Source: Gammaproteobacteria bacterium
Lineage (GTDB): Bacteria; Pseudomonadota; Gammaproteobacteria; S012-40
Assembly (NCBI GenBank): GCA_027021445.1
Contig: JALUUH010000177.1
Coordinates: 9,667 to 73,666, forward strand
Reading direction: 5' to 3'
DNA: 64,000 nt
The stretch's first letter is position 1, and every line of letters begins with the position of its first letter. Positions 1,292 to 13,006 of this stretch are shown here, piece after piece. The notes beneath the pieces are model-generated. The model ran no database searches, was not told the DNA's origin, and worked only from the letters and a program-made list of their open reading frames with translations. A program made the position numbers and the translations under genes.

Positions 1292-1699
1292 TTACTCTCT
1301 AAGCGCTCCGTCAGCAATCCATTGTCGAATTTTATCGATAACAGATTGTGGCAATGGAGAACCGTTTCTAGGCATTGTACCTACTGTGGATCTAGCATTG
1401 CCTTCTAGCACGTCAATCAAGTAACTGTTATTAGGGTCACCAGAGGCAACGCGTAATATTGATGAGGAGGTAGTACTTGGCCTATCAACAATTGAGGCAT
1501 AGGCATTAGCGGCTTCGAGATTCAAACCCGCCTTCGGCACACTCCCACGATGGCAGTTTGATAATGCACATGTGGGAGTAAATACCACATCTTGTATAGA
1601 CTGATAATCGGCAGTCAGGTCCGCAAATGTATTCACCGAATCATCTGCAGCACAACCACTTAAAAAAATAAAACTGAGCAACATCATTCTGAGCAACAT
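1292..1699 (-). CDS. Putative c-type cytochrome lipoprotein with atypical CX4CH motif
   Basis: AGGAGGAG RBS precedes ATG at 1699 (MLLRMMLL...). Lipobox LSGC, CALSNCH motif, GTMP candidate axial Met, C-terminal IRQWIADGA resembling planctomycete-type cytochrome c domains. Confidence 0.6.
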   Translation of the reverse strand: MLLRMMLLSFIFLSGCAADDSVNTFADLTADYQSIQDVVFTPTCALSNCHRGSVPKAGLNLEAANAYASIVDRPSTTSSSILRVASGDPNNSYLIDVLEGNARSTVGTMPRNGSPLPQSVIDKIRQWIADGALRE

Positions 1700-3638: not shown

Positions 3639-3657
3639 GGCAGAGAAAAGCCGCCTC
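3639..3657 (-). terminator. Riboswitch expression-platform terminator hairpin
   Basis: Minus strand GGCGG-CTTTTCT-CTGCC followed by TTTTTT, overlapping the 3' P1 strand of the TPP aptamer. Confidence 0.55.
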
Positions 3658-3755
3658 CCTACGCCGGTTCTAACCAGATCAGGTTTTAAGGGTATATCTC
3701 AGCCTATCTAAAAAAACTCACCTTTATGAAAGCTTTTATAGGCACCCCTGGTAGC
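3652..3755 (-). promoter_or_regulatory. TPP riboswitch
   Basis: Minus strand reads CAGGGGTGCC...GGCTGAGATATACCCTTAAAACCTGATCTGGTTAGAACCGGCGTAGGGA, the TPP aptamer consensus (GGGG, CTGAGA, ACCTGATC, GCGTAGGGA), directly upstream of thiC. Confidence 0.95.
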
Positions 3756-3968
3756 ACCTAAACCATAACACACAAAGACCAAACCTGGATACGCTGAAAT
3801 TTTATACCAATGACGACGCAATCACTCAACTACGCAGCATGAATCAAAGTTAAGCACATTATAAACTACGAACCCGCATAGGATATTTGTTGCCTATTTG
3901 CTACAAAGTGCTTAATCTAAAGCGCTCTTAATGTATGTGAACAATCTTTATCAATAGGCGCTCAAACA

Positions 3969-9465: not shown

Positions 9466-10086
9466 ATGTTATCAACCACCCAAAAAGTATTACGTGCGGC
9501 GAATTTCACCATGGCCGCTGCAGAAGCAAAACAATTACTAAAAGATCAAGGGTTAGAAGTCGCGTTTGCAGGCCGCTCAAACGCAGGCAAGTCGAGCGCA
9601 ATAAATGCCATAACAGCAAGATCATCGCTGGCAAGAACCAGTAAAACACCTGGCCGCACTCAGCAAATCATTTTTTTTGAACTCGATGAAACTCGTCGGC
9701 TTGTTGATCTACCGGGGTATGGTTTTGCCAAGGTACCCAATAGAATCAAAAAACATTGGCGCACTCTTATGTCGGGCTATTTTACCGACCGCTCATCACT
9801 TCAAGGTTTAATTTTGCTCATGGATATTCGCCATCCACTTCGAGATGAAGATATTCAGATGATTGACTGGTGCGTGGACACGCAAACTCCTATGCATATA
9901 TTGTTAACTAAATCTGACAAACTGAGTAAAGGTGCGGGCGCCAACCAGCTACAAAAAATCAATAAAGAACTTAATACCTTGGGTTATGAAGGGGCTTCTA
10001 TGCAATTATTTTCCGCTCTTAAGAAAACAGGAATCCCTGAAACACTGGATATTATAAGCGAGTGGTTAGACATTTCGGCAGAATAA
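9466..10086 (+). CDS. engB: Ribosome biogenesis GTPase YihA/EngB
   Basis: GRSNAGKSS, SKTPGRTQ, DLPGYG, TKSDKL; adjacent to polA. Confidence 0.96.
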   Translation: MLSTTQKVLRAANFTMAAAEAKQLLKDQGLEVAFAGRSNAGKSSAINAITARSSLARTSKTPGRTQQIIFFELDETRRLVDLPGYGFAKVPNRIKKHWRTLMSGYFTDRSSLQGLILLMDIRHPLRDEDIQMIDWCVDTQTPMHILLTKSDKLSKGAGANQLQKINKELNTLGYEGASMQLFSALKKTGIPETLDIISEWLDISAE

Positions 10087-10104
10087 TCACCATCATTGTT
10101 AGCT

Positions 10105-10228
10105 AAAAAAAACCCCAGTGGGAGAAACACCGGGGCCTTTGAGATACTCGATTCTGGGTAAATCGAGCTTTTTATAAACCCCGACTCTGGGAGGATGAGA
10201 GAGGGTAAGTAGAATATCGCCTACTAGT
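10105..10228 (-). ncRNA. Candidate trans-acting sRNA (Spot42/ErsA/sX13-syntenic)
   Basis: Four consecutive hairpins on the minus strand, three with C-rich loops, ending in CCCCGGTG-TTTCTCC-CACTGGGG plus T8. RpoE-like promoter just upstream; lies between polA and engB. 5' end inferred. Confidence 0.7.
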
Positions 10229-10233
10229 AAATA

Positions 10234-10260
10234 TTGACACGCCCTTTTCCTATTAGTTCC
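10234..10260 (-). promoter_or_regulatory. RpoE/AlgU (ECF sigma)-type promoter
   Basis: Minus strand GGAACT-N16-GTCAA, matching the sigmaE consensus GAACTT-N16-TCAAA. Confidence 0.6.
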
Positions 10261-10288
10261 CACAAAGATTAAACGAACCAGGTGATTC

Positions 10289-13006
10289 TTAATGCGCCTC
10301 ATCCCAATTATCACCCATTCCATAATCTACAACCAAGGGTATAGAAAGCACCGCCGCTTGCTGCATACGCTGACTAATTTCTGCCGCCGATTTATCGAGG
10401 TCACTTTCCTTAATTTCGAATACTAATTCATCATGTACCTGCATAATGAGTTTCAGCTCAGGCGCAGTTTGCTGGATCCATTGATCAACTGAGATCATCG
10501 CTCTTTTTATGATATCTGCTGCAGTTCCCTGCATCGGCGCATTAATCGCGGTGCGCTCCGCATACTGTCTTCGCTGATGGTTTGCAGCGTTTATATCTGG
10601 AAGATATAAACGTCGTCCAAACAAGGTTTCCACATAACCTTGCTCACGCGCTAACTCACGTGTGTTATCCATGTAAACTTTCACCCCTGGATATTCATCA
10701 AAATATTGATTAATATAGGTTTGTGCCTGATGCCGCTCTATTCCAAGCTGCTTAGCTAAGCCAAATGCAGACATTCCATAGATCAACCCGAAGTTTACTG
10801 CCTTAGCATGTCTACGCTGCTCTGTAGATACTTCTTCAGGCAATACCCCCATAATTTGTGCCGCTGTAATTCTATGGATATCTTCTCCATTATTAAAGGC
10901 TTCCAATAAACGCGAGTCTTGGGATAAATGCGCCATAATCCTAAGCTCAATTTGAGAATAGTCGGCAGCAAGAATTTTATGCCCTGGCGCAGCAATAAAT
11001 GCCTGGCGAATTCGACGACCTTCGGCGGTTCTTATCGGTATATTTTGTAAATTGGGGTCAGAAGAAGATAATCGACCGGTTGCGGCAACCGCCTGGTGAT
11101 AAGAAGTATGAACCCTATTTGTCACTTCACTAATCTGTAAAGGCAACTTATCCACATAAGTAGAGAGCAGCTTACTCATACTTCGGTGTTCGAGAATAAT
11201 ACGTGGCAACGGATACTTTATTGCTAGCTCTTGCAACACATCCTCCGCCGTGGATGCTTGTCCTTTCGGGGTTTTTTTAATGACCGGTAATTTCTGATCT
11301 TCAAATAATATTTTCTGAATTTGCTTGGGAGACGCCAAATTAAAACTTTCACCCGCAAGCTCATGGGCTTCTTGAACGAGTTTTGTTAATTTTGAGCTTA
11401 ACTCTACACTTTGTTGAGCCAGTAGATCTTTATCAATTAATACGCCGTTTCGCTCCATGCGAGATAAAACGCTAATTAACGGCAATTCTAGCTCCGTCAA
11501 TATTCTACTAAGATTTTCTTTTTGTTTTAAGTCCGCCCACAGTACATTGTGTAATTTTAAGGTAACGTCTGCATCTTCTGCCGCATAAGAACCTGCCTGC
11601 TCTAACGCAATCTGATTAAAGCTTAACTGTTTAGTCCCTTTGCCTGCAACATCCTCAAAATGTATTGTTTTATGTCCTAAGTATTTTAACGCCAACGTAT
11701 CCATATCATGCCTGGAGCTAACACTATCCAATACATAGGACTCAAGCATTGTATCGAATGCAATTCCCGCTAAGTAAATACCATAACGAGCGAGCACATT
11801 CATATCGTACTTTAAATTCTGCCCCACTTTTTTAGATTGGACATCTTCTAATAAAGGTTTAAGCGCTTGCAGAACAAAGTCTCTCTCCAATTGCTCTGGT
11901 GCGCCTTCATAATCATGTCCACAGGGCACATACGCAGCCTCACCTTCAACTACCGAAAATGAAACACCAACTATTTCAGCTACTATATAGTTGAGACTAG
12001 TTGTTTCCGTATCAAATGCAAAAAGTCGGGCACTCTTGAGCTTTTTTAACCACTCGTTAAGGTGATCCTTAGAAGTAATTATTTGATAATTTATAGCTTG
12101 GGCAGTTTCAACATGCTGATCATTACTTTGCGTGCTCACATTATTTTGCTCGTCGCTTAATAATTCATGCAGCCAACGTTTAAATTCAAAATGTTGGAAG
12201 TACGTTTTCAATGCCGCAGCATCCGGCGGGTTCAATTTAAGCTGTGTTATATCTATCGGTAAATCAACATCACATTTAATCGTCACCAAGGCTTGTGACA
12301 GAGGAATACGGGTGAGAACACTTCGCAAGTTTTCACCTACTTTGCCTTTTATTTCATCTGCACGAGTGATAATTCCCGCCAGGCTCCCATACTCCTTTAA
12401 CCATTTAACTGCTGTTTTTGGCCCTACTTTAGGCACACCTGGAATATTATCTGCGCTATCACCAACCAAGGCTAAATAATCAATGATATGGTTGGGGCCA
12501 ATGCCAAACTTTGCATGCACACCTTCAATATCCATTGCAGTATCAGTCATCGTATTGATCAACGTCACCCGGGAATTAACCAACTGCGCAAGATCTTTAT
12601 CACCGGTTGAAATGATGACATCTCTATCCATATTACAGGCTTGCTTAGACAAAGTTCCAATCACATCATCCGCTTCAACACCAACAACAGCAATGATGGG
12701 AAAGCCCATCGCTTGCAAAATTTCATTGATTGGCTCTATCTGTGCCACAAGATCGGCAGGCATAGAAGGTCTGTTTGCCTTATATTCTGGATACATATCA
12801 TCACGGAAAGTCTTGCCTTTGGCGTCAAATACAATAAGCACCTCTTCCGGCGAGTAGTCTTTAAGCAATTTTTTTAGCATGTTAACAACGCCATAAATTG
12901 CGCCCGTAGGCTGCCCTTTAGCATTCGTTAAATTCGGCATCCCGTGATAAGCGCGATACAAATATGACGAACCGTCAACTAAGATGATGGGCTTTTCTTG
13001 CTGCAT
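10289..13006 (-). CDS. polA: DNA polymerase I
   Basis: 5'-3' exonuclease (LVDGSSYLYRA), 3'-5' exonuclease (FDTETT) and polymerase motifs (ADYSQIELR, RHAKAVNFGLIYG, QVHDEL). Confidence 0.99.
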   Translation of the reverse strand: MQQEKPIILVDGSSYLYRAYHGMPNLTNAKGQPTGAIYGVVNMLKKLLKDYSPEEVLIVFDAKGKTFRDDMYPEYKANRPSMPADLVAQIEPINEILQAMGFPIIAVVGVEADDVIGTLSKQACNMDRDVIISTGDKDLAQLVNSRVTLINTMTDTAMDIEGVHAKFGIGPNHIIDYLALVGDSADNIPGVPKVGPKTAVKWLKEYGSLAGIITRADEIKGKVGENLRSVLTRIPLSQALVTIKCDVDLPIDITQLKLNPPDAAALKTYFQHFEFKRWLHELLSDEQNNVSTQSNDQHVETAQAINYQIITSKDHLNEWLKKLKSARLFAFDTETTSLNYIVAEIVGVSFSVVEGEAAYVPCGHDYEGAPEQLERDFVLQALKPLLEDVQSKKVGQNLKYDMNVLARYGIYLAGIAFDTMLESYVLDSVSSRHDMDTLALKYLGHKTIHFEDVAGKGTKQLSFNQIALEQAGSYAAEDADVTLKLHNVLWADLKQKENLSRILTELELPLISVLSRMERNGVLIDKDLLAQQSVELSSKLTKLVQEAHELAGESFNLASPKQIQKILFEDQKLPVIKKTPKGQASTAEDVLQELAIKYPLPRIILEHRSMSKLLSTYVDKLPLQISEVTNRVHTSYHQAVAATGRLSSSDPNLQNIPIRTAEGRRIRQAFIAAPGHKILAADYSQIELRIMAHLSQDSRLLEAFNNGEDIHRITAAQIMGVLPEEVSTEQRRHAKAVNFGLIYGMSAFGLAKQLGIERHQAQTYINQYFDEYPGVKVYMDNTRELAREQGYVETLFGRRLYLPDINAANHQRRQYAERTAINAPMQGTAADIIKRAMISVDQWIQQTAPELKLIMQVHDELVFEIKESDLDKSAAEISQRMQQAAVLSIPLVVDYGMGDNWDEAH

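Follow-up and report, generated by a model that had tools for sequence, protein, structure and literature searches.

Small RNAs (sRNAs) encoded in or near the gap between polA and engB (yihA) have been described under several names. Spot 42 of Enterobacterales and Vibrionales occupies this slot on the polA strand, has a GC-rich terminator, and is transcribed from a CRP-repressed sigma70 promoter, not from one of the sigmaE type. ErsA of Pseudomonas, which also lies in the polA-engB gap, is sigma22-dependent (PMC8575079, PMC13613067) and pairs through a 34-nt U-rich unstructured domain II (PMC8575079). The sX13 RNA of Xanthomonadaceae uses C-rich loops to repress mRNAs with G-rich motifs at the ribosome-binding site (RBS); mutation of a loop or of the target motif abolishes repression, and 63 genes changed in response to sX13 (PMC3771888). 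A further RNA, anti-hemB ("Burkholderia RNA 7"), was introduced as a betaproteobacterial CMfinder motif (hemB/anti-hemB) of initially ambiguous strand (PMC1950547). It was seen as ncS04 in B. cenocepacia J2315, where it is a discrete RNA of ~105 nt on Northern blots with reported Hfq binding (PMC5688073), and a 2026 preprint connects it with low salinity and takes it to regulate hemB in antisense (10.64898/2026.09.01.748597). Here, we describe an sRNA candidate on the minus strand of the polA-engB gap (10105–10228) in a 64,000-nt stretch of contig JALUUH010000177.1 (assembly GCA_027021445.1), hereafter called the window, meaning the whole stretch of DNA that was analyzed. The source assembly, from an uncultured gammaproteobacterium, is 67% complete with 41.6% G+C, and its sole congener is a metagenome-assembled genome (MAG) labeled Ectothiorhodospiraceae. 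The candidate is very likely a real, independently transcribed sRNA gene. We further consider it probable that this gene encodes a trans-acting, sigmaE-dependent RNA of ~124 nt whose C-rich loops would pair with G-rich or Shine-Dalgarno sites.

The predicted RNA and its predicted promoter

The two flanking genes converge, since polA (10289–13006, minus strand, 905 aa) ends on the minus strand at 10289 and engB/yihA (9466–10086, plus strand, 206 aa) ends on the plus strand at 10086, both as given in the list of open reading frames (ORFs). The candidate occupies the minus strand of the 202-nt gap, with polA upstream on the same strand and engB convergent; its start falls about 60 nt past the polA stop codon and its end 18 nt beyond the engB stop codon. 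Promoters of the sigmaE/AlgU type, as known for E. coli RpoE and P. aeruginosa AlgU, follow the consensus GAACTT-N16/17-TCNNA. A motif fitting this consensus, GGAACTA-N16-TCAAT, is present at 10233–10260 on the minus strand (−35 GGAACT at 10260–10255, a 16-nt spacer after GAACTA, and −10 TCAAT at 10237–10233), which puts the transcription start at about 10228–10225, with an A at 10228 or 10225 as the predicted 5' end. The source genome encodes an RpoE equivalog (TIGR02939, 315.6 bits; cut-off 236).

Downstream of this promoter, the minus strand from 10228 to 10105 folds into three hairpins and a terminator followed by a T8 run, and all of these elements were recovered by sequence inspection and folding at the positions that an earlier note on this DNA had given for them. 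Hairpin 1, defined by folding (10208–10225; AGUAGG/UCUACU, loop CGAUAU), precedes hairpin 2 (10178–10206; ACCCU..CUC/GAG..GGGGU), whose apical loop AUCCUCCCA at 10196–10188 includes an anti-Shine-Dalgarno-like CCUCC(C). Hairpin 3 (10146–10168; CUCGAUU(UA)/(UG)AAUCGAG) exposes the loop UACCCAG (ACCCA/CCCAG), and the Rho-independent terminator (10105–10140) combines a 13-bp stem (10140–10128 with 10120–10108), the loop UUUCUCC, and the T8 run at 10112–10105, which marks the 3' end. The hairpin 1 sequence GAGUAGGCGCAA recurs within the window's taxonomic family, and sX13 loci, too, can have a GCGCAA loop. The minimum free energy of the RNA is −42 kcal/mol versus −28.95 ± 3.78 kcal/mol for 200 dinucleotide shuffles (z = −3.45; one shuffle was equally stable). 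A simple scan for sigma70 promoters and terminators flagged neither the promoter nor the terminator features because it seeks other patterns, and no Rfam family reached its gathering threshold at the sRNA site when the 64-kb window was searched, for which reason the sRNA is called unannotated.

A DNA search of 60 relatives recovered the RNA in the congener alone, at 84% identity. There, both promoter boxes are identical and the spacer is different; all three C-rich loops are unchanged and the loop of hairpin 1 differs. The congener carries a compensatory change from U-A to C-G in hairpin 3 and a change from C-G to U-G in the terminator. The same comparison bears on the idea that the region encodes a small protein, either as a 74-aa ORF (10099–10323, minus strand) or, by analogy with the dual-function Spot 42/SpfP, as a shorter peptide. 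An ATG-started 74-aa frame does span the region, and E. coli spf is annotated with SpfP, but this frame starts inside polA in another reading frame, the stretch differs in the congener by indels of 23 and 2 nt, with only a different 57-aa GTG frame open there, and the substitutions preserve base pairs rather than codons. As the predicted RNA moreover contains no AUG, the 74-aa ORF was rejected as a gene, and a coding role of any kind is extremely improbable.

A covarying RNA family across Gammaproteobacteria

The candidate sRNA gene is placed in a wider context by the engB-flanking DNA of the same taxonomic family and of more distant Gammaproteobacteria. Reading these sequences revealed a shared layout with differing stem sequences, in which the promoter and hairpin 1 are followed by a CCUCCCU-loop hairpin, another hairpin whose loop reads UCCCCAA or UCCCAGA, and a terminator that in relatives often has a CCUCCCC loop. 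All 25 relatives folded individually into the same four hairpins despite their differing stems. A covariance model built from 17 seed sequences, the window included (R1), identified 38 copies in 33 of 93 sources and scored the window at 82 bits (E = 2e-18, at 10105–10232), a value that is partly by construction because the window is a seed, which does not hold for the congener and 21 non-seed matches. A second covariance model (R2) gave the window 69 bits and matched 154 of 301 genomes sampled evenly across the class (139 of 271 genera), mostly with one copy per genome and in a few cases with up to four (dispersed copies in G135 and G311). The window RNA was the single match of the models both in the window and in its genome.

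An old sRNA family spread over the GTDB class Gammaproteobacteria, Burkholderiales included, would best explain this distribution. The earlier note had proposed a lineage-specific member of a positionally conserved but sequence-divergent group. Membership in such a group held up. However, the group proved to be a single, detectably homologous family with matches in roughly half of the genomes that were sampled from the class, and is neither lineage-specific nor conserved in position alone. Lineage specificity, as the plain DNA search alone would imply, was thus ruled out by the class-wide matches of the covariance models.

Genomic context was examined at the 30 best loci, where engB adjoins the RNA in convergent orientation in 24 and polA lies upstream on the same strand in 18. 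The RNA adjoins engB even where polA is absent (loci L132 and L145), and in two members of the window's taxonomic family, L120 (1353–1477, plus strand; G011) and L123 (1359–1474, plus strand; G009), it lies directly upstream of engB on the same strand, having remained beside engB through rearrangement. A cis role on engB, in which a convergent transcript or bidirectional terminator sets the engB 3' end or hinders transcription of the gene, would account for the persistence of the RNA beside engB over long evolutionary distances. This constancy, including at the loci without polA and at the two rearranged loci, speaks for it, as does the distance of only 18 nt between the RNA end and the engB stop codon. 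However, the RNA does not overlap the engB coding sequence, only three T residues follow the terminator hairpin on the plus strand, and the element has a conserved stress-promoter motif of its own. Moreover, its loops are more conserved than its stems, which a mere terminator would not need, and sX13 has no engB neighbor yet acts in trans through its loops (PMC3771888). We consider a cis role unlikely. As a separate observation on copy number at these loci, two Chromatiaceae MAGs (L031, 2130–2615; L055, 2124–2597) carry three tandem sRNA copies between engB and the next gene, most with their own GAACTT-N16/17-TCNNA promoter.

The independent sRNA gene is further supported by compensatory change. 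In the 38-copy alignment, which was fitted to the model and is biased towards structure, 85.2% of cells pair versus 37–49% when the partners are slid by 1–3 columns, both partners have changed in 27 of 29 pairs, and none of 500 shuffles attained the observed values. By helix, changes on both sides were found in 6 of 6 pairs (helix 1), 7 of 7 (helix 2), 6 of 7 (helix 3, with 93% of cells pairing), and 8 of 9 (helix 4, the terminator, with 95% of cells pairing). RNAalifold on a plain MAFFT alignment recovered helices 3 and 4, with compensation in 11 of 16 pairs, and did not recover helices 1 and 2, which were obtained through a hand-drawn structure and re-alignment to the covariance model. The covariation among relatives that the earlier note had proposed as a check was therefore found for all four helices, with conserved structure at orthologous loci, and its placement of an independent sRNA at the Spot 42/ErsA/sX13 position is borne out by a conserved gene with compensatory changes.

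The promoter is conserved alongside the fold. The motif [GA]AAC[TCA]N-N15-17-TCNN[AT] was found just 5' of 56 of 67 family copies (several of the misses being window-edge effects) versus 75 of 2,000 random 67-nt windows drawn from the same loci (3.75%). This argues that the sigmaE-type promoter is a feature of the whole sRNA family, and homology together with the conserved promoter suggests that the window RNA is transcribed and sigmaE-dependent. These data also bear on the view that the element is only the polA 3' untranslated region (UTR) with its terminator, the small RNA being a processing or read-through product without a promoter or function of its own. Its location 60 nt past the polA stop codon on the same strand fits that view, and the terminator is the sole strong one after polA. 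Set against this are two promoter boxes that are kept at fixed spacing throughout the class amid a variable spacer and variable polA-proximal sequence, and three conserved covarying hairpins upstream of the terminator. In addition, the RNA persists where polA is not a neighbor, and ErsA, sX13, and ncS04 have mapped primary transcripts (PMC8575079, PMC3771888, PMC5688073). A mere polA 3' UTR is accordingly very unlikely.

An independent gene with single-stranded seeds is also suggested by the loops. Of the 38 copies, 28 have YYUCCC in the loop of hairpin 2, 35 have CCC(C)A in that of hairpin 3, and 27 have a C-rich loop in the terminator. These motifs are better conserved than the stems, which vary freely, and conserved loops on variable stems are the pattern expected of functional single-stranded seeds. 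Variants were observed in Thiogranum/Thiohalobacter-like MAGs (L041, L050, L071, and L040), in which the hairpin 2 loop lacks CCUCCC. Three of them (L041, L050, and L071) have a single-stranded UAUUCCUCCAA between hairpins 2 and 3, as if the seed had left the loop, which recalls the unstructured domain II of ErsA. The window RNA itself combines the full-length model match, the four covarying helices, the C-rich loops, the promoter motif, and adjacency to both engB and polA.

Beyond the class, in a sample of the phylum, R2 matches were weak (31–35 bits), and the four that were inspected had no polA or engB within 1.5 kb. Given these scores and this context, and since two of the matches resemble alpha-r14-type RNAs, homology outside the class was rejected. 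Two loci outside the class (L189 and L192, family f252) have one long hairpin with the loop CCCUCCCCUCCCUCCCC and a terminator after it, have neither polA nor engB close by, and probably encode alpha-r14-type "CCUCCUCCC" sRNAs; L192 adjoins an apparent tRNA gene, as judged by eye.

Comparison with anti-hemB, sX13, ErsA, and Spot 42

Judged from the sequences, anti-hemB is the nearest curated relative of the window RNA, a correction to the earlier note, which had not named it. Both RNAs combine a hairpin bearing a CCUCCCU-type loop with a short spacer and a Rho-independent terminator, and hairpin 2 of the window RNA corresponds to the hairpin of the Rfam anti-hemB model. That model, however, spans 81 positions and comprises hairpin 2 and the terminator only, leaving the region of hairpin 3 unstructured and lacking hairpin 1. 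The link is made through intermediate sequences. Four loci (L126, L132, L136, and L145) exceed the Rfam anti-hemB gathering score, L126 being from the window's own taxonomic family, and these loci (77–92 bits) and the window (82 and 69 bits) are full-length matches to the same models R1 and R2, which points to homology between the window RNA and bona fide anti-hemB members. Whereas anti-hemB was defined in Betaproteobacteria beside hemB, the window RNA lies beside polA and engB. As L136 passes the anti-hemB gathering score with polA and engB as neighbors, the hemB context is not essential to the family, and the constancy of engB as a neighbor, with polA often upstream, argues against a hemB-specific cis role for anti-hemB.

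The comparison with sX13 was made with R2, which was built without any sX13 sequence. In all six Lysobacterales genomes, the best genome-wide R2 match fell just downstream of polA (28–39 bits; E = 2.6e-6 to 1.7e-3 per genome), and five of these six loci are Rfam sX13 (70–122 bits). When sX13 is aligned to the model, its three C-rich loops coincide with those of hairpin 2, hairpin 3, and the terminator, in agreement with the sX13-like C-rich loops that the earlier note had proposed. Like the window RNA, sX13 lies downstream of polA on the same strand and is built of stem-loops with apical C-rich loops (AUCCUCCCA, ACCCA(G), and UUUCUCC in the window). The two differ in that sX13 loci of Xanthomonadaceae have lost engB as a neighbor, in that the sX13 loops read CCCC or CCCCC rather than CCUCCC, and in that a sigmaE-type promoter, predicted in the window, is not evident in all of the sX13 loci that were read; sX13 also acts without Hfq. 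It is the only relative with an experimentally tested C-rich-loop mechanism. At the sX13 loci L171–L175 (around 1617–1632, minus strand), R2 aligns a well-formed hairpin 1 (e.g., CGACAG-GCGCAACGC-CUGUCG) that begins ~16 nt before the 5' end of the Rfam sX13 model. The 115-nt sX13 as annotated may therefore start within a conserved hairpin; alternatively, this hairpin could be part of the promoter region.

ErsA shares with the window RNA its location in the polA-engB gap on the polA strand, a promoter motif of the same type, a C-rich terminator loop, and the order of stem-loop 1, middle domain, stem-loop 2, and terminator. Among 300 genomes, the Pseudomon-1 model found one true ErsA (121 bits), and its five sub-threshold matches (E = 1e-4 to 1e-3) all fell in polA-engB gaps, three of them on strong R2 matches. 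Conversely, R2 scored the true ErsA locus (L164) at 23.7 bits. This locus has polA upstream, a C-rich terminator loop CCCCCUCCCCC, and the promoter GAACTT-N17-TCATA. The motif of the ErsA-like sigmaE promoter that had been claimed for the window has counterparts both there and in front of most family copies. Spot 42 resembles the window RNA in slot, strand, and GC-rich terminator but lacks C-rich loops. On E. coli spf, R2 reached 17.8 bits (E = 9e-4 in a 6-kb search), exactly on spf and with the terminator carrying most of the score, and on this basis no homology to Spot 42 is claimed.

Taken together, we think it quite likely that the window RNA shares ancestry with anti-hemB and sX13. For ErsA, we lean only slightly towards membership in the same lineage, and the same slight preference applies to one ancient sigmaE-driven, engB-anchored sRNA gene as the common ancestor of anti-hemB/ncS04, sX13, and ErsA. 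Rfam lists the anti-hemB, sX13, and ErsA families without a clan, and a search of the accessible literature found no paper naming sX13 and ErsA together; a unification of the three known sRNAs is apparently unpublished.

Some likenesses were set aside. The alpha-r14 RNAs of Alphaproteobacteria also have hairpins with CCUCCUCCC loops and a terminator and gave the best sub-threshold Rfam score of the window RNA, a likeness that may have arisen by convergence on anti-Shine-Dalgarno loops. Rfam matches to His_leader, PyrR, NsiR1, sR36, and ZNRD1-AS1_3 (E = 0.9–8) were discarded as noise of terminators or composition. Elsewhere in the window, a thiamine pyrophosphate (TPP) riboswitch (RF00059, 66.8 bits) at 3639–3759 on the minus strand was the sole Rfam match above gathering.

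Proposed loop pairing, targets, and the meaning of the family

In the proposed mechanism, a sigmaE (RpoE/AlgU)-dependent promoter located shortly after polA would drive the RNA, and the transcript would end at the Rho-independent terminator 18 nt past the stop codon of the convergent engB. The conserved single-stranded C-rich loops, CCUCCC (hairpin 2), CCCAG (hairpin 3), and CUCCC (terminator), would serve as seeds for base pairing with G-rich or Shine-Dalgarno-like stretches close to the start codons of target mRNAs and would lower the translation of these mRNAs, making the RNA a post-transcriptional arm of the envelope-stress response. The experimental basis of this model is the loop mechanism of sX13 (PMC3771888) and, for control by a stress sigma factor, ErsA alone (PMC8575079, PMC13613067). 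The loop-pairing step taken by itself is moderately favored, and pairing (by analogy with sX13), any role of Hfq, and the targets of the window RNA are here putative. With regard to Hfq, a motif search was empty, and a hidden Markov model (HMM) search returned one Hfq-family frame in the source genome and two in the congener. The congener genes are one canonical (103 bits) and one divergent (66 bits) copy (G001 C64:6016–6195 and C1:65813–65980), and the incomplete source genome shows the divergent type only (65.6 bits, a 71-aa frame; G000 C227:19572–19739, minus strand).

The same loops could instead make the RNA a global anti-Shine-Dalgarno mimic, binding many mRNAs or competing with the 16S rRNA 3' end and damping translation broadly under envelope stress. 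The hairpin 2 loop holds the anti-Shine-Dalgarno core CCUCC, each molecule has two or three conserved C-rich loops, GGAGG occurs in ~100 of 1,467 predicted start regions of the genome (GGGAGG in 19), and ar14, the best sub-threshold Rfam match, has similar loops. Yet sX13 altered a limited set of 63 genes and its repression required specific G-rich motifs (PMC3771888), the conserved loop flanks (CCCUGAG and UCCCCAA/UCCCAGA) suggest longer and more specific seeds, and one sRNA is unlikely to out-titrate ribosomes, which leaves global mimicry improbable.

Several results weigh against a trans-acting sRNA that pairs with selected targets and descends from a gene shared with the known RNAs. The 5' end of the sRNA is predicted only, from promoter geometry, and the pair counts carry the structural bias noted above. 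CCUCC being the anti-Shine-Dalgarno core, complementarity to ribosome-binding sites is near-unavoidable and constitutes weak evidence for particular targets. A target scan of predicted start regions in the source genome, which used duplex energies and perfect complementarity over 8 nt or more, gave no coherent set but 17 candidates of mixed function; since it was dominated by ordinary Shine-Dalgarno sequences, it was not used as evidence. Against Rfam, the window scored 21.9 bits with anti-hemB (RF02837; E = 0.006–0.01, gathering 49.5) and 30.6 bits with ar14 (RF02344; E = 5e-4, gathering 58.8). Of the three models that the earlier note had put forward for comparison, Spot_42 appeared below threshold (RF00021; 14.9 bits, E = 2.6, gathering 80), sX13 was unmatched on 10000–10400 at E up to 10 (RF02232; gathering 50 bits), and Pseudomon-1/ErsA, unlisted on the gap, had no match in the source genome at E ≤ 0.001 (RF01719; gathering 50 bits). 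The link to ErsA consists of weak scores, with weak reciprocal matches at a syntenic locus, and ErsA has its U-rich single-stranded domain II where the window RNA has the CCUCCC hairpin 2.

By itself, the finding adds one further unannotated sRNA gene in an uncultured gammaproteobacterium, and its value lies in the family. A single model joins three RNAs that have separate literatures and Rfam entries, and annotation pipelines could use it to label a very common intergenic gene that is missed at current Rfam thresholds. To our knowledge, no function or promoter type has been published for anti-hemB; anti-hemB/ncS04 would gain a testable mechanism, in which its C-rich loops would target G-rich ribosome-binding sites during envelope stress, and the family predicts sigmaE control wherever the conserved promoter is present. 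If the common origin is true, the published view that anti-hemB regulates hemB in antisense would be mistaken, and the U-rich seed of ErsA, perhaps along with Spot 42, would be a lineage-specific remodeling of the same gene. The C-rich-loop mechanism of sX13 would then be the ancestral mode of a class-wide envelope-stress sRNA.

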